Positions 25,688-35,541 of a stretch of DNA of 64,000 nucleotides are shown one piece after another. Location: IMG/VR virus record IMGVR_UViG_3300031952_000010, positions 27,512 through 91,511 of that record; one strand, written 5' to 3'. Each line of letters begins with the position of its first letter. Positions within the stretch are counted from its first letter, which is position 1. The DNA comes from a virus. Position numbers and translations under genes: made by a program. The notes beneath the pieces are model-generated. The model saw only the letters and a list, made by a program, of their open reading frames with translations. It searched no databases and had not been told where the DNA came from.

Positions 25688-25761
25688 GGCTCCGTAGCTC
25701 AATTGGACAGAGCAACACACTTCTAATGTGTAGGTTACTGGTTCGAGTCCAGTCGGGGTCA
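25688..25761 (+). tRNA. tRNA-Arg(UCU)
   Basis: Cloverleaf; ACACA-ctTCTaa-TGTGT; GGTTCGAGTCC. Confidence 0.95.
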
Positions 25762-27140: not shown

Positions 27141-27260
27141 ATGAAAACTAATAAACAACATATGGTCATTAACGTGAAATCGCAATTTAGTAATTGCTGG
27201 TATCCGCGTATTTCGCATACAAGTTCAGTTAGTTTATTAAGTGATATAATTTTTGAATAA
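27141..27260 (+). promoter_or_regulatory. Attenuator leader peptide of tRNA operon 1 (39 aa)
   Basis: MKTNKQHMVINVKSQFSNCWYPRISHTSSVSLLSDIIFE; A-rich initiation context; codons 12-26 match all 14 downstream tRNAs. Confidence 0.85.
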
Positions 27261-27330: not shown

Positions 27331-27342
27331 GTTCTTTGACAT
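27331..27342 (+). promoter_or_regulatory. rrn-type boxA antitermination element
   Basis: GTTCTTTGACAT just before the first tRNA; recurs ahead of other RNA genes. Confidence 0.7.
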
Positions 27343-27358: not shown

Positions 27359-27430
27359 CGGGGTGTAGTCTCGAGGAGAGACGCGTGTTTTGGGAACACG
27401 AGGCGGCAGGTTCGACTCCTGTCACCCCGA
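27359..27430 (+). tRNA. tRNA-Pro(UGG)
   Basis: CGGGGTG/CACCCCG; CGTGT-ttTGGga-ACACG. Confidence 0.92.
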
Positions 27431-27436
27431 CTACAT

Positions 27437-27510
27437 TGTCACATAGCTCAGTTGGTTAGAGCGTTCGCCTGATACGCGAAAGGTCGATGGTTCGAGCCCA
27501 TCTGTGACAA
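27437..27510 (+). tRNA. tRNA-Ile(GAU)
   Basis: TTCGC-ctGATac-GCGAA. Confidence 0.95.
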
Positions 27511-27516
27511 CTTAAT

Positions 27517-27590
27517 GACTTCGTAGCTCAGTTGGCTAGAGCACCTCACTTTTAATGAGGGAGTCCCGAGTTCGAGTCTCGGCGGGGTCA
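27517..27590 (+). tRNA. tRNA-Lys(UUU)
   Basis: CCTCA-ctTTTaa-TGAGG. Confidence 0.95.
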
Positions 27591-27596
27591 CAATAA

Positions 27597-27668
27597 GGTC
27601 GGTTGGCCGAGTGGTTTAGGCGATAGTCTGCAAAACTATCAACACAGGTTCGACTCCTGTACCGACCT
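27597..27668 (+). tRNA. tRNA-Cys(GCA)
   Basis: ATAGT-ctGCAaa-ACTAT; U73 discriminator. Confidence 0.95.
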
Positions 27669-27673
27669 CAAAT

Positions 27674-27746
27674 ACGTCTGTAGCTCAGTTGGTAGAGCAT
27701 TGGTCTCCAAAACCAAGTGTCGGTGGTTCGAATCCATCCAGGCGTG
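27674..27746 (+). tRNA. tRNA-Trp(CCA)
   Basis: TTGGT-ctCCAaa-ACCAA. Confidence 0.95.
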
Positions 27747-27753
27747 CTAAAAT

Positions 27754-27839
27754 TGACGGGTTCGCGTAGTTGGCCGAACGCACCAGACTGTTAATCTGGC
27801 GAGACTTCTCCACCGTGGGTTCGAATCCCACCCCGTCAG
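27754..27839 (+). tRNA. tRNA-Asn(GUU) with a long variable arm
   Basis: TGACGGG/CCCGTCA; CCAGA-ctGTTaa-TCTGG; extra GAGActTCTC arm. Confidence 0.88.
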
Positions 27840-27888
27840 CAAACATTTACGAACTTTCTAATATTTATTAATATAAAATGTTAATATT

Positions 27889-28446
27889 ATGGAAAGGTAT
27901 TCGGAAAAAATAATTACCTTAAGGAAAGAAGGTAAAACCTATAAAGAAATTAAAAACATTATAGGGTGTGCAATGTCAACAATATCGTATCATTGTACAT
28001 TAAATGGTTTAGGGGATAATAACCAAAAGGTAACTGAGAACGAAATCATCGAACTTCAAAAAATGTATGACGAATTTGGTTCACTTAAAAAAGTTGCTAA
28101 AATAACGGGAAGGGCTTTTGATACCGTTCAAAAATATGTTAAGACAAAACAAAAAGTTAAAACTGTAACATCTTCTGAATCAGTTATTTTATGGAGAAAA
28201 AGGACTAAAATTAAATTGATTGAATATAAAGGAGGTAAATGTGAAATTTGTGGATATGATAAATGTAATAGAGCCTTACAATTTCATCATAAAAATCCAT
28301 TAGAAAAGGATTTTTCAATATCGGGTAGAAGTTTATCATTTGACAGATTAAAAGACGAGGTTGATAAATGTATGTTAGTTTGTTCTAATTGTCATTGTGA
28401 AATACACGATAATTTAATAACGATAAATAGGTTGATTAGGGAATGA
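27889..28446 (+). CDS. HTH-containing HNH (homing-type) endonuclease inserted in the tRNA operon
   Basis: Two HTH-like segments; KGGKCEICGY, LQFHH, CMLVCSNCHCEIH. Confidence 0.88.
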   Translation: MERYSEKIITLRKEGKTYKEIKNIIGCAMSTISYHCTLNGLGDNNQKVTENEIIELQKMYDEFGSLKKVAKITGRAFDTVQKYVKTKQKVKTVTSSESVILWRKRTKIKLIEYKGGKCEICGYDKCNRALQFHHKNPLEKDFSISGRSLSFDRLKDEVDKCMLVCSNCHCEIHDNLITINRLIRE

Positions 28447-28566
28447 TTGAACTGATAGTTCGAGAGTGAATACTGACTAGTACAATCGGAGTTTGCAGGT
28501 ATTCACCCGAGTAATGCTAATCGTAAAAACAGATGTCCACTGAACCATCTTCTGTTTTCCTAAATT

Positions 28567-28647
28567 GGGAGTATTGAGCAACGGTTGCTCAGCGGTCTGT
28601 AAAACCGTCGCCATTTGGCATTGCAGGTTCGAATCCCGCTACTCCCA
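28567..28647 (+). tRNA. tRNA-Tyr(GUA)
   Basis: GCGGT-ctGTAaa-ACCGT; long variable arm. Confidence 0.93.
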
Positions 28648-28701
28648 CAATAAAAAAAGGGGAATAACTTCCCCTCTTTTCTTTAATTTGGTTGTTATTA
28701 A

Positions 28702-28866
28702 TTATTTTTTTTTAGAAACAATTGACCACACACCACCTGCAAGTGTAACCGCTGCTCCGATAAGTTCTTGTACTGATGAATCAGTTGCAAGACCTTTCAT
28801 AATCAGGATACCACCTACGAAAGTAAGTGTGTGTCTAACGATACCTAGGATTTGTTCTTTAGTCAT
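28702..28866 (-). CDS. Small two-TM holin-like protein (54 aa)
   Basis: MTKEQILGIVRHTLTFVGGILIMKGLATDSSVQELIGAAVTLAGGVWSIVSKKK; below the ORF-track cutoff. Confidence 0.7.
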   Translation of the reverse strand: MTKEQILGIVRHTLTFVGGILIMKGLATDSSVQELIGAAVTLAGGVWSIVSKKK

Positions 28867-28922
28867 TTTAATGTTGATTAAAGGTTTATGCCAGTCTATA
28901 AGTATCGGAGAAATAGGTAAAC

Positions 28923-28993
28923 TGTCCTTTGGTCTAATGGCAGGACACGTGGTTTTGGTCCACGCGGTGGAGGTTCGAATCCTTCAGGGACAA
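28923..28993 (+). tRNA. tRNA-Gln(UUG)
   Basis: CGTGG-ttTTGgt-CCACG. Confidence 0.95.
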
Positions 28994-29045
28994 CAAGGGG
29001 TTCGGGGGAAACCCAATAGTGGGTGATGAGCCCACATCCTCCAAA

Positions 29046-29116
29046 TACCGAATGGTCTGGTGACCGAAAATGGCTCATATCCGTTTTTAGAGTGGTTCGA
29101 AACCATTATTCGGTAC
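29046..29116 (+). ncRNA. Non-canonical tRNA-like element (CAU anticodon, minimal D arm)
   Basis: TACCGAAT/ATTCGGTA; GGTC-tggt-GACC; ctCATat loop; GGTTCGAAACC. Confidence 0.55.
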
Positions 29117-29123
29117 TTTAAAC

Positions 29124-29196
29124 AGTTCCTTAGCTCAGTTGGGAGAGCGCTTGTTTTACATGCAAGATGTCGTAGGTTCGAATCCTACAGGAACTA
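29124..29196 (+). tRNA. tRNA-Val(UAC)
   Basis: CTTGT-ttTACat-GCAAG. Confidence 0.95.
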
Positions 29197-29558
29197 CAAA
29201 AAATGTTTGGAGAATTAAATAATTTGCCGTACATTTGTAATATAGAAGTAAGGGGGGTAGGTAGTTAGTGGGTTGGTGACCTACTCCCCTGACGAAAGAG
29301 TTCTTTGAATAAAATGTTGGTGGATGGTAAGAAACGGTAAACTCGTAAAGTGCATTAACCTGTTGATATGAAATGGTGAAACGAGAGTCCATATCAGCTA
29401 CTCATCACAATAAAAATATTGATAATGGTTTTCCCCATTCAACGAAGGTCGACTCTTCAGAATGGAATCGGAATTCATCACCCTTTGCTGAGGCCTCATT
29501 AAAACTCAGGAAGCAATTAAGATTGGAGCGAGACGGGTACTCCATCATTATTATACTT

Positions 29559-29631
29559 GGAACGGTAGCTCAGTTGGTAGAGCACTTGATTGAAGCTCAA
29601 GGTGTCGGCGGTTCGAACCCGTCTCGTTCCA
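29559..29631 (+). tRNA. tRNA-Phe(GAA)
   Basis: CTTGA-ttGAAgc-TCAAG. Confidence 0.95.
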
Positions 29632-29704
29632 CGGAGTCCTGAAATAACAGGATGCCCCCACTCCCATATGGCAGCCAGTCCATTAAGCTGGTGAAGGGGG
29701 TAAA

Positions 29705-29811
29705 TAGTCAAGTGGACGTAATGCGGGATGGTCCCAAGTCCCCAACTCTAACGAGGTAAGGTAGTCTAATCCGTCTTGAACGGTATTCGGTTCGAGTCCG
29801 ACCTTGATTAC
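29705..29811 (+). ncRNA. Enlarged tRNA-like element with no clear anticodon arm
   Basis: TAGTCAAG/CTTGATTA acceptor-like stem; TCGG-TTCGAGT-CCGA T arm; extra hairpins. Confidence 0.5.
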
Positions 29812-29814
29812 AAA

Positions 29815-29895
29815 TTGCGATAATGGTGTAGGGTCGTTCTCATGAGACGATTTGGTAGATATACCCCTGTGAGGTTCGAGTCCTCAAATCGCAAC
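29815..29895 (+). ncRNA. tRNA-like element lacking a D arm (CAU anticodon)
   Basis: TTGCGAT/ATCGCAA; TCGTT-ctCATga-GACGA; TGAGG-TTCGAGT-CCTCA. Confidence 0.55.
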
Positions 29896-29904
29896 AAATT
29901 ATAT

Positions 29905-29978
29905 GGTGACTATAGCTCAGTTGGCAGAGCAAAGGTTTGTGGTACCTTGTGCCATGGGTTCGATTCCCATTAGTCACC
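29905..29978 (+). tRNA. tRNA-His(GUG)
   Basis: Encoded G-1/C73; AAGGT-ttGTGgt-ACCTT. Confidence 0.95.
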
Positions 29979-30078
29979 CAAATAGGTTGGGGTCCCTTGT
30001 AGTAACGGATTGAACTATAGTAAGTAAACTACAAGTATCTAGTAAGAAGTCACAGATGGGTTCGTGACGACCTAAATT

Positions 30079-30163
30079 GGAGGAATGGCAGAGTGGTCTA
30101 TCGCACTTGTCTTGAAAACAAGCGTACCGAAAGGTACCGTAGGTTCGAATCCTACTTCCTCCG
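30079..30163 (+). tRNA. tRNA-Ser(UGA)
   Basis: CTTGT-ctTGAaa-ACAAG; long variable arm. Confidence 0.95.
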
Positions 30164-30186
30164 CAAAACAATTAGAAAAAAAACAT

Positions 30187-30390
30187 ATGACAGACAAGTT
30201 AAAAGAGTTGTTAGAGACATCTCAAATTGGGGAACCTGAAATCGTTGATTTAATTCATTCGTATTATAAATTAGTGACCGCTGAATTATTCACACAAGAA
30301 GAATTTGATACCGTATTAGAAAGATTAGGTATTACACAAAACGGGAACGTTTTTATTTTCAACGAGAACATAACTTATACTTTTAACTAA
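30187..30390 (+). CDS. Small hypothetical protein (67 aa)
   Basis: [13 protein letters not shown]...; the ORF-track start 30085 lies inside tRNA-Ser. Confidence 0.6.
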
Positions 30391-30393
30391 AAT

Positions 30394-30465
30394 AGTTCCT
30401 TGGTGTAATGGATAGCACTAAACACTACGGATGTTTCAGTGAGGGTTCGAGTCCTTCAGGGACTA
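30394..30465 (+). tRNA. tRNA-Arg(ACG)
   Basis: AAACA-ctACGga-TGTTT. Confidence 0.95.
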
Positions 30466-30470
30466 CTATT

Positions 30471-30555
30471 GGAAGATTGGCAGAGTGGTAATGCGGCGGT
30501 TTGCTAAACCGTAGACCTCGAAAGGGGTCCACAGGTTCGAATCCTGTATCTTCCG
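30471..30555 (+). tRNA. tRNA-Ser(GCU)
   Basis: GCGGT-ttGCTaa-ACCGT; long variable arm. Confidence 0.95.
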
Positions 30556-30600
30556 CTTATTTATAATTTTATACTATTTATTATCGAATAATATGATATC

Positions 30601-32416: not shown

Positions 32417-32546
32417 ACAACAAATATAACGCTCTTATTTGACTAAAACAAATTTTTTTATTATTTTCTTTCTAAAAATATTTTTTAAAAAGTTTTGGCA
32501 GTCTCAAAATTTATTGTATCTTTGTATTCACAAAAACGATATAACT

Positions 32547-32996
32547 ATGACAACTACCAACACAATCATCGACGTAACAACAGGAACATTAGCAGGTGAC
32601 GTATTCTACGGAAACTTTAAAACTCGTGTTAAAAATAAAGTAATTAATGTTATGGTTTCAAACCACTTGAAAGACATTAACAAAGAATATGAATTCCGTA
32701 TCGCAGGGAAATGTCAAGCAGGATTCATCAGTATCCACGATACTAAAGGAACCGCTGGTGAAGTTATCCGTGGATACCAAAAAAACTCTTTGGTTAATAT
32801 CCAAGCAAAAAATGAGTTCGGTCATTGGATGAATGTTTACACAACTAAAGGTGGTAAATGGTACTCAATCGACAAAGGTTTCTTGGAAACTATTACAGTT
32901 GGTACTATGAGAGAATCTTTCCCTGATATGTGCGATATGCAAATTTGGGAAAGAATGGGAGCTAAGACTTGGGCTGATAAGGCTTTCACAAAATAA
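32547..32996 (+). CDS. Hypothetical protein
   Basis: ORF track 32439..32996; ATG 32547 follows TATCTTTG. Confidence 0.65.
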   Translation: MTTTNTIIDVTTGTLAGDVFYGNFKTRVKNKVINVMVSNHLKDINKEYEFRIAGKCQAGFISIHDTKGTAGEVIRGYQKNSLVNIQAKNEFGHWMNVYTTKGGKWYSIDKGFLETITVGTMRESFPDMCDMQIWERMGAKTWADKAFTK

Positions 32997-33066
32997 GAAG
33001 TTTTTACCAATATTTGACTTTTTATGAAAGTCGTATATATTTAATAGAAAATACATAATACTGCAA

Positions 33067-33138
33067 ATGAAAAATTTAAATATCATACTATTAGGCGGGA
33101 CTGAGGCGGATACGTTAACTCGGACGGCGATGGTATGA
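33067..33138 (+). promoter_or_regulatory. Attenuator leader peptide of tRNA operon 2 (23 aa)
   Basis: MKNLNIILLGGTEADTLTRTAMV; run ATA CTA TTA GGC GGG ACT GAG GCG GAT matches the downstream tRNAs. Confidence 0.82.
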
Positions 33139-33162
33139 TGTTTTGTCAACAATAACAATCAG

Positions 33163-33192
33163 AACCCATCTCCAAAAAAGATGGGTTTTTTT
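33163..33192 (+). terminator. Attenuator terminator of tRNA operon 2
   Basis: AACCCATCT-ccaaaaa-AGATGGGTT plus T run; competing hairpin 33129-33170. Confidence 0.88.
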
Positions 33193-33261
33193 ATGTCTAA
33201 AAGTTGGTAATTAAATAAATTGTTGTATCTTTGTGAAACAATAAAGGGGATGAAACCCCGA

Positions 33262-33273
33262 GTTCTTTGACAT
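33262..33273 (+). promoter_or_regulatory. boxA element preceded by a boxB-like hairpin
   Basis: GGGG-atgaaa-CCCC then GTTCTTTGACAT. Confidence 0.7.
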
Positions 33274-33295
33274 GTTGGTTTGAAAAAAAAATTAA

Positions 33296-33367
33296 GGTCT
33301 ATTCGTTCATCGGCTAGGATGCTACCCTGTCACGGTAGTGAGGAGGGTTCGATTCCCTCATGGACCG
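33296..33367 (+). tRNA. tRNA-Asp(GUC)
   Basis: CTACC-ctGTCac-GGTAG. Confidence 0.95.
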
Positions 33368-33378
33368 CAAACAATAAG

Positions 33379-33454
33379 GGGGGTGCATGTACCAAGGCAT
33401 TGGCGATGTCGATTTGCAATCAACGTGAGGTGGGTTCGATTCCCATCATCTCCA
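33379..33454 (+). tRNA. tRNA-Ala(UGC) with atypical D arm
   Basis: G3.U70 pair; ttTGCaa loop; GGTTCGATTCC. Confidence 0.85.
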
Positions 33455-33467
33455 CACAAAAATATAT

Positions 33468-33539
33468 CGTGGGATAGAGCAGTGGTAGCTCGCAAGGCTC
33501 ATAACCTTGAGGTCGGGGGTTCGAATCCCTCTCCCGCAA
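33468..33539 (+). tRNA. tRNA-fMet(CAU)
   Basis: C1:A72 mismatch; CAAGG-ctCATaa-CCTTG. Confidence 0.88.
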
Positions 33540-33548
33540 CTAATACAT

Positions 33549-33622
33549 CGTGGGTTAGACTGGAGGTGGTTCCAGCTTGGTCTCATAAGCCAAAGACGGG
33601 GGTTCGAGTCCCTCACCCGCAA
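33549..33622 (+). tRNA. tRNA-Met(CAU)
   Basis: TTGGT-ctCATaa-GCCAA; also has C1:A72, so elongator versus initiator role is uncertain. Confidence 0.8.
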
Positions 33623-33700
33623 CAAATGTGTCTCAATTCCCTGAAGAAATTCAAAGTTGAGGTCTCGGTAGACAGAACGCGTCTGATTCTACCCAAATAC

Positions 33701-33773
33701 GCGAATATCGTATAGTGGTTTATTACTCCATCCTTCCAAGTTGGAGACGACAGTTCGATTCTGTCTATTCGCT
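33701..33773 (+). tRNA. tRNA-Gly(UCC)
   Basis: GCGAATA/TATTCGC; ctTCCaa loop; U73. Confidence 0.93.
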
Positions 33774-33780
33774 CAAAAAT

Positions 33781-33861
33781 GCTTAAGTGGTGGAATGGTA
33801 TACACGTATGTCTTAGGAACATATGTCTTATGACGTGAGGGTTCGAGTCCCTCCTTAAGTA
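33781..33861 (+). tRNA. tRNA-Leu(UAG)
   Basis: TATGT-ctTAGga-ACATA; variable arm. Confidence 0.93.
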
Positions 33862-34428
33862 CAAAACCAAGGTAATGTCAGTAGGATGAGGCCGCAATCG
33901 GATTCCTTTGAACAACGCGTGAGGGGCGGCTTTCACGATGTGGCTGATAACCCGAGGTTTTAAGACCCCACGAGTAACGGAGATATCCGACCGTTATGGA
34001 GTGTGAACCTGACTTGAAGGCTTCAAGGCTATGGGGGAGGCAACACAAACAAACACGGATTCCCCATTATGGATTAAGGGGGTAAGGGGCTTTAATTAGT
34101 CGTAATACAATCCACAAGTTGTAAGAACACTGAACAATCTTACAATACACACTCTGACTTCCGAGTGAGACTCACCACGTAACTTTGGGGGTAGGGTGAA
34201 GATGTTCTGAGGATAACACTGAACGCTGAACAGTAAAAACCATGACGCATTTGATTGGTAGAATAGGTTAAGACGGAGTGTGAAAGTAGAAACCCCCGAT
34301 GGATGGTTACTAAGCTCTTTAACTCAAAAGGGATAGTCGGGAGGGATATATAAGCTTAAGGGAAACTATAAGTAAAAACTAGGTCAGTTCCGATTTAACC
34401 CCTATCGGTACGAGTGTCTGACCTTAAT

Positions 34429-34501
34429 GCCTCCTTAGCTCAGTTGGCAGAGCACTTGTTTTGTAAACAAGATGTCGTTGGTTCGAATCCGACAGGAGGC
34501 T
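34429..34501 (+). tRNA. tRNA-Thr(UGU)
   Basis: CTTGT-ttTGTaa-ACAAG. Confidence 0.95.
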
Positions 34502-34527
34502 CAATGAGTAAGAGATACTCATCAAAT

Positions 34528-34613
34528 GCTCGGGTGGTGTAATTGGTAGCCACGCAAGACTTAAAATCTTGTGGACTGTAAGGTCCGTGCGGGTTCGATT
34601 CCCGCCCCGAGTA
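34528..34613 (+). tRNA. tRNA-Leu(UAA)
   Basis: CAAGA-ctTAAaa-TCTTG; long variable arm. Confidence 0.95.
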
Positions 34614-34615
34614 CT

Positions 34616-34813
34616 AAAACAAATCTTACATAAGACGGATTAGCACCGTTGAAAGGAACCTTGGCTTCACCGCGGAGTAATTACCGTAACAGAAGTTCTA
34701 AATGCCCCAAGGTACTATGTAATGGACCCTGCTCTGATGTGCACGTCAACAGGTGATGGGGAACAAACCATCGGTCAAATCTAAACCTACGGTGAGCGTA
34801 GAAGATTTGTTTT
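34616..34813 (+). ncRNA. Unidentified ~200-nt multibranched RNA
   Basis: 12-bp closing stem AAAACAAATCTT/AAGATTTGTTTT plus several internal stems; no ORF. Confidence 0.6.
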
Positions 34814-34818
34814 TATTT

Positions 34819-34893
34819 GGTCCCATCGTCTAACGGTTAGGACATCAGGTTTTCATCCTGAAAATCGGGGTTCGATTCCCCGTGGGACTACCA
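34819..34893 (+). tRNA. tRNA-Glu(UUC), CCA encoded
   Basis: TCAGG-ttTTCat-CCTGA. Confidence 0.95.
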
Positions 34894-34914
34894 AATATTC
34901 TTCATTTATATAAA

Positions 34915-34988
34915 GGACTTGTAGCTCAGTTGGTTAGAGCACCGCACTCATAATGCGTAGGTCCATGGTTCGAGTCCATGCTGGTCCA
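34915..34988 (+). tRNA. tRNA(CAU), probable Ile2 (lysidine; reads AUA)
   Basis: ctCATaa loop; body GGACTTGTAGCTCAGTTGGTTAGAGC resembles bacterial Ile2; Met not excluded. Confidence 0.75.
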
Positions 34989-35040
34989 CTTTTTTCAAAT
35001 TATACATTGCCAGTCCAAATTTTTTTTGTATATTTGTTAT

Positions 35041-35541
35041 ATGAAAAATCAACTACCATATTGTAACACATCTGAAGCGATTAAAGGATATGATAATTCT
35101 CCTATTGCAAAATCCGAAACAAATGATTGTGTTGTTCGTGCGATAGCATCAGCATTTGACCTTGAATACGATAGAGCTCATAAATTTGTTGCCGACACAT
35201 TTGGTCGTAAACCAAGACAAGGTACTTTTGGATTTGGTCCTGGTATGAATAAGATTGCCGAAGAAAGAACTCGTATTGGTAGAAAATGTGTCAAACCTAT
35301 GGGTACTAAAGCAGAACACAGTTCTTTCCGTTCACTATCTTACGATGTTAAAGTTAAAGGAGTTAAAACTTCACGACAAATGACTGTGGGTACTTTCATT
35401 TCAAAATACCCTTTAGGTACTTATGTAGTTACAGTTAAACGTCACGCCTTCACTATTAAAGATGGTGTGGTTATCGGTAATCGTGAAGATGCTATTCAGA
35501 AAAGAAAAATCATGTTATTGGCTTGGAGAGTTGGTTCATAA
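35041..35541 (+). CDS. Hypothetical phage protein
   Basis: ETNDCVVRAIA motif; the ORF-track start lies inside a tRNA. Confidence 0.65.
   Translation: MKNQLPYCNTSEAIKGYDNSPIAKSETNDCVVRAIASAFDLEYDRAHKFVADTFGRKPRQGTFGFGPGMNKIAEERTRIGRKCVKPMGTKAEHSSFRSLSYDVKVKGVKTSRQMTVGTFISKYPLGTYVVTVKRHAFTIKDGVVIGNREDAIQKRKIMLLAWRVGS

Follow-up and report, generated by a model that had tools for sequence, protein, structure and literature searches.

A codon-matched leader in front of a phage tRNA array as a putative translation-sensing attenuator

How phages control their tRNA genes, and why these genes are sorted into blocks, is poorly understood. Both questions are raised by a locus in a 64,000-nucleotide (nt) stretch of an uncultured virus (IMG/VR record IMGVR_UViG_3300031952_000010, positions 27,512 to 91,511), hereafter the window, which is part of a 91.5-kb fragment of a large phage with an estimated completeness of ~31%, displays a G+C content of 33% and contains 27 tRNA genes as called by ARAGORN. 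Two arrays of tRNA genes are of concern here, array 1 (27359-30556) and array 2 (33296-34989), the latter preceded by a short open reading frame (ORF), leader 2, and by an intrinsic terminator. An original prediction had described the region in front of array 2 (33013-33273) as an attenuator whose ORF spells out the codons read by the tRNAs behind it. Does the phage adjust the supply of these tRNAs by monitoring how fast their own codons are translated? Our analysis indicates that a translation-sensing attenuator quite probably gates, at least in part, the transcription of array 2, a reading built on the observed anatomy and conservation of the leader, on the covariation of two alternative RNA pairings and on the statistical match between leader codons and array content. 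All features of leader 2 and array 2 described below are located on the plus strand.

Leader 2 (33067-33138) comprises 23 codons followed by a TGA stop, reads MKNLNIILLGGTEADTLTRTAMV and has 37 distinct homologues that maintain the ORF. The ten tRNAs of array 2, the putatively controlled genes, are Asp-GTC, Ala-TGC, three tRNAs with a CAT anticodon, Gly-TCC, Leu-TAG, Thr-TGT, Leu-TAA and Glu-TTC. When codons are assigned to boxes, with Leu CUN/UUR, Ser UCN/AGY, Arg CGN/AGR and Ile AUY/AUA kept apart, the boxes of array 2 account for 16 of the 22 codons that follow the ATG, a codon 'barcode' that covers nine boxes out of nine. Twelve of the matching codons are consecutive, from ATA to ACT (33085-33120), as the original prediction of an ORF with a run of array 2 codons had it. 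In a Monte Carlo null with 22 codons drawn from the window's own coding usage, the number of hits and the full coverage each have a probability of 0.004 and the run one of 0.0003, and leader 2 is alone in covering all nine boxes among the 109 ORFs of the window with 20-26 codons after the start. The one-to-one match claimed at the outset is thereby borne out for the boxes, including both Leu boxes, but its AUA member relies on an unproven assignment of one CAT tRNA as tRNA-Ile2.

The two leaders of the window divide the code as the two arrays do, again as predicted. Leader 2 matches array 2 with 16/22 codons and array 1 with 7/22, whereas leader 1 (27141-27260) matches array 1 with 31/38 codons and array 2 with 8/38; in addition, leader 1 covers 15/15 boxes of array 1 and contains a run of 23 matching codons, with probabilities from 0.001 down to 0.000025. 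The unusual codon endings of leader 2 are confirmed for G, which ends 8/22 codons compared to 11.6% in coding sequence (P = 0.002), and the CGG codon has, as stated earlier, no cognate phage tRNA in the window.

The match extends beyond the window. Units composed of a leader and an array were collected from arrays found by scanning viral contigs for a boxA-like motif next to tRNAs, by a rule that requires (i) a terminator less than 150 nt before a tRNA and (ii) the longest ATG-initiated ORF of 12-60 codons ending 5-50 nt before this terminator. Of the 74 units that satisfied this rule, 29 had five or more tRNAs and were distinct at 80% peptide identity. In these 29 pairs the leaders cover 0.90 of the boxes of their own array, compared to 0.70 when the arrays are reassigned among leaders by shuffling (z 7.0, reached by 0/20,000 shuffles), and 0.65 of the leader codons match the own array, compared to 0.47 (z 7.8), the probabilities being inexact. 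The two remaining reading frames of the same DNA give a coverage of 0.58-0.64, and 16/29 arrays are covered in full by their own leader. With one representative per 50% cluster (n = 20), z is still 5.6 for coverage and 6.2 for hits. The argument against chance thus gains from the recurrence of the match, co-varying, in 29 distinct leader/array pairs of other phages (z ~7 relative to shuffled pairs), and at the level of codon boxes the match appears as a large effect despite the kinship of the leaders.

A complete 321-kb relative, G001, distributes its tRNAs in another way than the window, and its first array (Pro, Asn, Asp, two Gly, Thr and Ala) has a short ORF and a terminator in front, the ORF containing the run P-T-T-P-N-G-D-G-G-N. 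In G001 (L075, 133500-143500, minus strand) leader and terminator are present only at the first of three tRNA blocks, and the other two directly follow protein genes, with no visible leader. A search with the DNA of the region for distant matches in public phage records returned tRNA genes only and no close relatives. The protein encoded upstream of leader 2 (32439-32996) has relatives at 45 loci, and only two of these, the near-identical L001 and L002, carry the arrays, which indicates that the leader travels with the array and not with the upstream gene.

A pattern built from the start of the leader retrieved a leader 2 family of 58 viral contigs, with 37 distinct sequences spanning leader and terminator. 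Gaps in the ORF are multiples of three, and the encoded peptide begins with a well-conserved MKNL(H/N)I. The arrays behind the core I-(I/S)-L-(I/L)-G-G..L-A-E-D always contain Leu-TAA and Gly-TCC, and nearly always Glu and Asp. Within the family, (i) tRNA-Thr (Thr-TGT) is part of the array in the window lineage only, and the leader of this lineage has four Thr codons compared to a mean of 1.2 elsewhere; (ii) CUN Leu codons appear only where tRNA-Leu(TAG) is in the array; and (iii) AGA is used in relatives whose array has tRNA-Arg(TCT), whereas in the window Arg-TCT lies elsewhere and the leader has CGG. These co-changes between codons and tRNAs amount to few evolutionary events. One member of the family (L233:465-650, +) has no terminator, its leader running directly into the boxA-like element, and may be regarded as a natural 'constitutive' variant. 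In the 98% identical relative L002 (1364-1457), ARAGORN finds only one of the two initiator-like tRNAs present at the head of array 2.

The RNA of the leader region can adopt alternative structures, which comprise four segments: segment 1 (33079-33092), segment 2 (33126-33142), formed by the tail of the ORF, the stop codon and 4 nt beyond it, segment 3 (33161-33173) and segment 4 (33179-33189). Segments 3 and 4 constitute the 5' and 3' sides of the intrinsic terminator, a stem of 11 bp with a 7-nt loop (-13.6 kcal/mol) that spans 33161-33189 and, with its T tract, extends to 33196. A terminator had been predicted behind leader 2, and it is indeed found there, its stem beginning 24 nt after the stop codon and being 99.4% paired across 36 homologous sequences. 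In the competing antiterminator, GGcGATGG in the tail of the ORF (33126-33133) pairs with CCATCtCC in the 5' arm of the terminator (33166-33173), with a similar energy of -13.4 kcal/mol. In the 36-sequence alignment, 93.8% of the cells of this helix are paired and four of its eight pairs show compensatory changes; the observed value is matched by 0/500 shuffles, and shifting the register lowers the pairing to 77% or less. At one position the covariation is threefold, linking the tail of the ORF, the 5' arm and the 3' arm, with UA or GC in the antiterminator and AU or CG in the terminator. The last residues of the peptide (MEMV, KERV, KKRV, AMV) change together with the terminator 5' arm, so that selection at the end of the ORF acts on RNA pairing and not on the peptide. 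The hairpin that the original prediction placed over the stop codon, sequestering an arm of the terminator, is therefore upheld in its GATGG/CCATC part by compensatory changes in 36 leaders, but its inner pairs (TGA/TCA and others) are not conserved. Unusual complementarity between ORF end and terminator 5' arm is also seen in 20/28 leaders of other families (mean z -2.8), and the distance between stop codon and terminator recurs as a gap of 21-35 nt; the antiterminator of leader 1 is weak by duplex energy (z ~-1.2).

The predicted helix between segments 1 and 2 comprises 14 contiguous bp, formed by 33079-33092 and 33129-33142, and pairs codons 5-9 with the tail of the ORF and the stop codon in a hairpin of -25.0 kcal/mol that encloses the matched codons. 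The whole leader 2 fold has an energy of -41.4 kcal/mol (z -5.35 relative to shuffles), and RNAalifold predicts both the 1:2 helix and the terminator. A second subfamily, with a TAA stop, shows apparent pairing in another register (TTACAC with GTGTAA). In this model the 1:2 helix provides a fourth segment that was absent from the original prediction, and would make 'off' the default state of the switch.

The position of the ribosome would determine which of these structures forms. Host RNA polymerase would start at the promoter P1 and transcribe the 23-codon leader. When no ribosome is present, the 1:2 and 3:4 pairings would form and lead to termination; a ribosome that quickly reaches the last codons or the stop codon would cover segment 2, allowing 3:4 to form, again with termination. 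On the other hand, a ribosome slowed at about codons 3-17 by a scarcity of the matching charged tRNAs would break the 1:2 helix and leave segment 2 free to pair with segment 3 before segment 4 is made, and the polymerase would read on, pick up the boxA signal and transcribe the tRNAs of array 2. These tRNAs would in turn speed up translation of the leader and close the switch, a negative feedback on the tRNA pool by a logic known from the trp and his attenuators. In short, the model has the phage probably making more array 2 tRNAs when ribosomes read the matching codons slowly.

The limits of the sensing window were estimated by a stall scan with an assumed footprint, in which the RNA is taken to be inaccessible as far as 12 nt beyond the first nucleotide of the codon in the A site. 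When codons 3-17 (33073-33117) occupy the A site, the 2:3 pairing is predicted to form before segment 4 exists; when codons 18-24 occupy it, the ribosome is predicted to hide segment 2 and leave the terminator able to form. The predicted sensing window includes 12 codons that match array 2 and represent eight of its nine boxes (all but Met), and it coincides with the matched run because codons 3-17 leave segment 2 free. All sensed codons are part of the 1:2 hairpin loop, so that the output would be the same wherever among them the ribosome stalls, and one switch could read many different codons.

Behind the terminator, a boxA-like element (GTTCTTTGACATgTTGG, 33262-33278) includes the 12-mer GTTCTTTGACAT (33262-33273), which precedes both arrays of the window, array 1 at 27331-27342 and array 2 at 33262-33273. 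A small GGGG/CCCC hairpin (33247-33259), just before it, occupies a position like that of a boxB, a function that we infer from its placement. In unrelated phage arrays (loci L079-L191), GTTCTTTGACATnTTGG is found 7-18 nt upstream of tRNAs in most of the 38 hits that could be placed (38/120), both after terminators and between tRNAs. In a collection of bacterial genomes, GTTCTTTGACAT is overwhelmingly present in Bacteroidota. In the rRNA (rrn) operon of Pedobacter hartonius (Rfam, one contig), it is located in the 16S-23S spacer, after two tRNAs and ~150 nt before the 23S rRNA. Around the bacterial motif hits, no start of 16S rRNA was found within 400-1500 nt downstream, and a strict 23S pattern is present near 10/122. 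GTTCTTTGACAT resembles the boxA of E. coli rrn operons, and its placement in the Pedobacter spacer is typical of spacer boxA elements. A reading of GTTCTTTGACAT as a promoter was considered and dropped, as the motif also sits between tRNAs, lies 7-18 nt before mature 5' ends and matches the motif of the Bacteroidota rrn spacer. The motif is accordingly best described as a putative Bacteroidota rrn boxA-like element, with predicted binding of NusB/NusE, and phage tRNA arrays seem to borrow the antitermination signal of the host rrn operons. The element shares with the rrn-type boxA/Nus antitermination system (PMC10931766) its location before structural RNAs and the match with the Pedobacter spacer motif; it differs in that phages use it in tRNA arrays, both before the first tRNA and between tRNAs. 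Since a boxA acts in RNA, it needs a promoter upstream.

Two candidate promoters are available for this purpose. P1 (33014-33043), identified by a consensus scan, comprises TTGAC, a 17-nt spacer and TATATTTA, corresponding to -33/-7 boxes of the Bacteroidota type, and the arrangement TTGAC-N17-TA(T/C)(A/C)TTTA-N21-25-ATG is kept in 36/40 distinct upstream regions of the leader 2 family. The candidate P2 (33204-33233), read from the sequence, is located 3' of the terminator and comprises TTG, 19 nt and TATCTTTG (33226-33233). The caveat of the original prediction, that TATCTTTG marks a promoter downstream of the terminator, is justified in that this box lies between terminator and boxA; attenuation may thus add to a basal level from P2 at this locus. 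A TAnnTTTG box is present at the equivalent place in 14 of 32 boxA-bearing units and absent from the others, and many relatives have no room for a promoter: the boxA starts at most 25 nt past the terminator stem in 18/32 units, and some tRNAs start 12-13 nt past the terminator, so that read-through is the only evident entry in such units.

Evidence on transcription comes from assembled metatranscriptome contigs, which give neither transcript ends nor strand, do not demonstrate that one transcript was continuous or that DNA was absent, and are uninformative where they provide no cover. A 478-nt contig covers 33038-33515, comprising the leader, the terminator, boxA, tRNA-Asp, tRNA-Ala and part of the next tRNA, whereas the same run has almost no cover over the gene upstream of leader 2. 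The contig is weakly consistent with a start near P1 followed by some read-through.

The presence of two promoters also admits another arrangement, in which P1, the ORF and the terminator form a separate tiny unit that makes its own peptide or RNA, P2 drives the array, and shared ancestry or composition accounts for the codon match. In favour of it, P2 has a good box of the Bacteroidota type 3' of the terminator, boxes comparable to it occur in those 14/32 units, and the well-conserved MKNL(H/N)I N-terminus would suit a peptide with a function. Such a function would not need codon sets that track the arrays at box level across unrelated leader families, and the residues of the tail (MEMV, KERV, KKRV, AMV) follow the 5' arm of the terminator, as expected of selection on RNA pairing; together with the many relatives that lack room for a promoter behind the terminator, this makes the separate unit improbable.

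A more general sensor is unlikely as well, namely an attenuator that responds to overall translation capacity or amino-acid supply (any slowing, or the timing of infection) and not to the specific tRNAs of the array. Leader-peptide attenuators answer to charged tRNA, and amino-acid starvation would open this switch too; besides, the sensing window also takes in the first codons (Lys, Asn and Ile-AUC), which are served by array 1, and a phage tRNA for CGG is lacking. General sensing, on the other hand, does not require codons that follow the content of the array, and the tracking holds within split families (Leu CUN/UUR, Arg AGR/CGN, Ser UCN/AGY and AUA) and for the differently partitioned arrays of relatives. 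The direction of regulation could also be reversed, efficient translation of the leader causing read-through and stalling causing termination, with positive feedback as the outcome. The direction is deduced from structure, and the 2:3 (-13.4 kcal/mol) and 3:4 (-13.6 kcal/mol) pairings are close in energy. Nevertheless, a ribosome finishing the leader would mask the antiterminator and not the terminator, because segment 2 overlaps the last codons and the stop, and the stop codon, 24 nt from the terminator stem, is too far away for a terminating ribosome to block it; with this geometry recurring in other families (gap of 21-35 nt), the reversed logic is very improbable.

Several observations weigh against a translation-sensing attenuator as the control of array 2. 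Six of the 22 codons of leader 2 are outside the boxes of array 2: five of them (Lys, two Asn and Ile-AUC among the first codons, and a terminal Val) are served by array 1, and the sixth, CGG, by no phage tRNA. The AUA codon is matched only if one CAT tRNA of array 2 is tRNA-Ile2. Ala codons are kept in relatives where tRNA-Ala was not found; L002, in which ARAGORN detects no tRNA-Ala, retains two GCG codons in its leader, although this may reflect a recent loss or a missed gene. The leaders are phylogenetically related, and because of this shared phylogeny the permutation tests overstate independence. The 1:2 helix is paired in the window's subfamily of 21 sequences through one-sided (compatible) changes only, with no compensatory ones. 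At P2, the good TAnnTTTG box at 33226 with a TTG 19 nt upstream could supply most array 2 transcripts, and the 478-nt contig, which begins ~11 nt upstream of the predicted start site, may be contaminating DNA. Finally, we infer from structure that the leader is translated, that read-through depends on stalling, which way the regulation runs and how strong it is compared with P2.

The surroundings of the leader add several features. The phage probably infects a host in the Bacteroidota, because the boxA-like motif is almost confined to Bacteroidota genomes; Bacteroidota-type promoter-like boxes (TTTG / TAnnTTTG) are spread throughout the window. ARAGORN places a lone tRNA, Arg-TCT, at 25688, and lists in array 1 Pro, Ile-GAT, Lys, Cys, Trp, Asn, Tyr, Gln, two Met-type tRNAs, Val, Phe, His, Ser-TGA, Arg-ACG and Ser-GCT. 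The last tRNA of array 2 (34915-34989), called Met(CAT), is the closest to Ile tRNAs among five CAT tRNAs (identity 0.81 with Ile-GAT and 0.76 with Ile-TAT) and resembles elongator Met as well as Ile tRNAs. The adjacent CAT tRNAs at 33468-33540 and 33549-33623 both display the C1-A72 mismatch of initiator-like tRNAs, the second with an irregular D arm. In array 1, an 87-nt 'tRNA-Met' (29809-29895) has a poor acceptor stem and may be non-functional as a tRNA, and a 185-aa ORF (27889-28446, +) with a helix-turn-helix domain (PF13936), located between tRNA-Asn and tRNA-Tyr, may be a mobile insert of the homing type.

Array 2 also contains non-coding elements. A freshwater-1 RNA (RF02979; 84 bits, cut-off 72), a motif with no known function, is located at 34718-34779 (+) between tRNA-Leu(TAA) and tRNA-Glu, and is transcribed here along with the tRNAs of the phage. 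The 560-nt spacer between tRNA-Leu(TAG) and tRNA-Thr (33867-34426, +) has no Rfam match at E<=1; it is represented by long contigs in four metatranscriptomes, with a notable depth of up to ~125, and is a candidate stable non-coding RNA.

If the attenuator operates as proposed, textbook attenuation would extend to a new class of targets, with direct feedback of the product on tRNA supply, and the partition of tRNAs into operons would be explained. The leader would be a predictor, readable from sequence, of the tRNAs that an operon is meant to replace, as well as a compact, programmable device that monitors the decoding speed of many codons in parallel. The depletion of tRNAs could arise from host shut-off, from a mismatch in codon usage or from anti-phage anticodon nucleases of the host. 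A broader picture can be offered tentatively, as a possibility somewhat short of probable: large Bacteroidota phages would run each tRNA operon under a multiplexed sensor of the tRNA pool, in which the leader carries a sample codon for each tRNA encoded, the depletion of any single tRNA opens the operon and recovery closes it. With nearby RNA repair genes, such a sensor would act as a counter-defence that can be induced, and no autoregulated tRNA operon of this type would have preceded it.

The closest mechanistic parallels are the multivalent leader-peptide attenuators of enterobacterial amino-acid operons, such as thr (Thr and Ile) and ilvGMEDA (Ile, Leu and Val), together with trp, his, leu and pheA. 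Leader 2 has the same parts, including (i) a short promoter-proximal ORF with regulatory codons, here matched to a tRNA supply, (ii) an intrinsic terminator and (iii) an RNA with mutually exclusive 2:3 and 3:4 pairings and a candidate 1:2 pairing that would exclude 2:3, for a total of four segments, the antiterminator at the end of the ORF excluding the terminator; charged tRNA would likewise be sensed through the position of the ribosome. The differences are in what is controlled and how many codons are read. The amino-acid operon attenuators control biosynthetic enzymes, whereas leader 2 would control tRNAs and thereby sense its own product. Where those leaders repeat the codons of one to three amino acids, the phage leaders have about one codon per box, from nine boxes in leader 2 to 20, and the sensed codons are inside the loop of the 1:2 hairpin. 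Moreover, leader 2 is borne by a phage, in a Bacteroidota-type promoter context and with a boxA behind. To our knowledge, all leader-peptide attenuators described to date regulate genes of amino-acid biosynthesis or aminoacyl-tRNA synthetases; downstream of leader 2 are the ten tRNAs instead, and literature searches returned no published leader-peptide control of tRNA genes.

Systems in which tRNA charging governs components of the translation apparatus include the attenuator of pheST, with its pheM leader, and T-box riboswitches. These systems also link genes of the decoding machinery to the state of particular tRNAs, but their targets are aminoacyl-tRNA synthetase or amino-acid genes and not tRNA genes, and the T-box binds uncharged tRNA directly, with no need for a ribosome. 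No T-box or other Rfam family is detected at 33013-33273 (best score 22 bits, cut-off 100, in a permissive scan of 32900-35100). The nearest published inducible accessory tRNA array is the long tRNA operon (trn) of Anabaena sp. PCC 7120, which is silent until translational stress (PMC8421152) and is repressed by the ribbon-helix-helix protein TrcR, in a report in which the words leader, attenuator and terminator are absent (PMC10272220). Like the Anabaena operon, array 2 would be an accessory set of tRNA genes that stays off until translation is impaired; in Anabaena this is achieved by a protein repressor acting at the promoter of a cellular, megaplasmid-borne operon with no codon-matched ORF, whereas in the phage it would be achieved by the translation of a leader whose codons match the array behind it.

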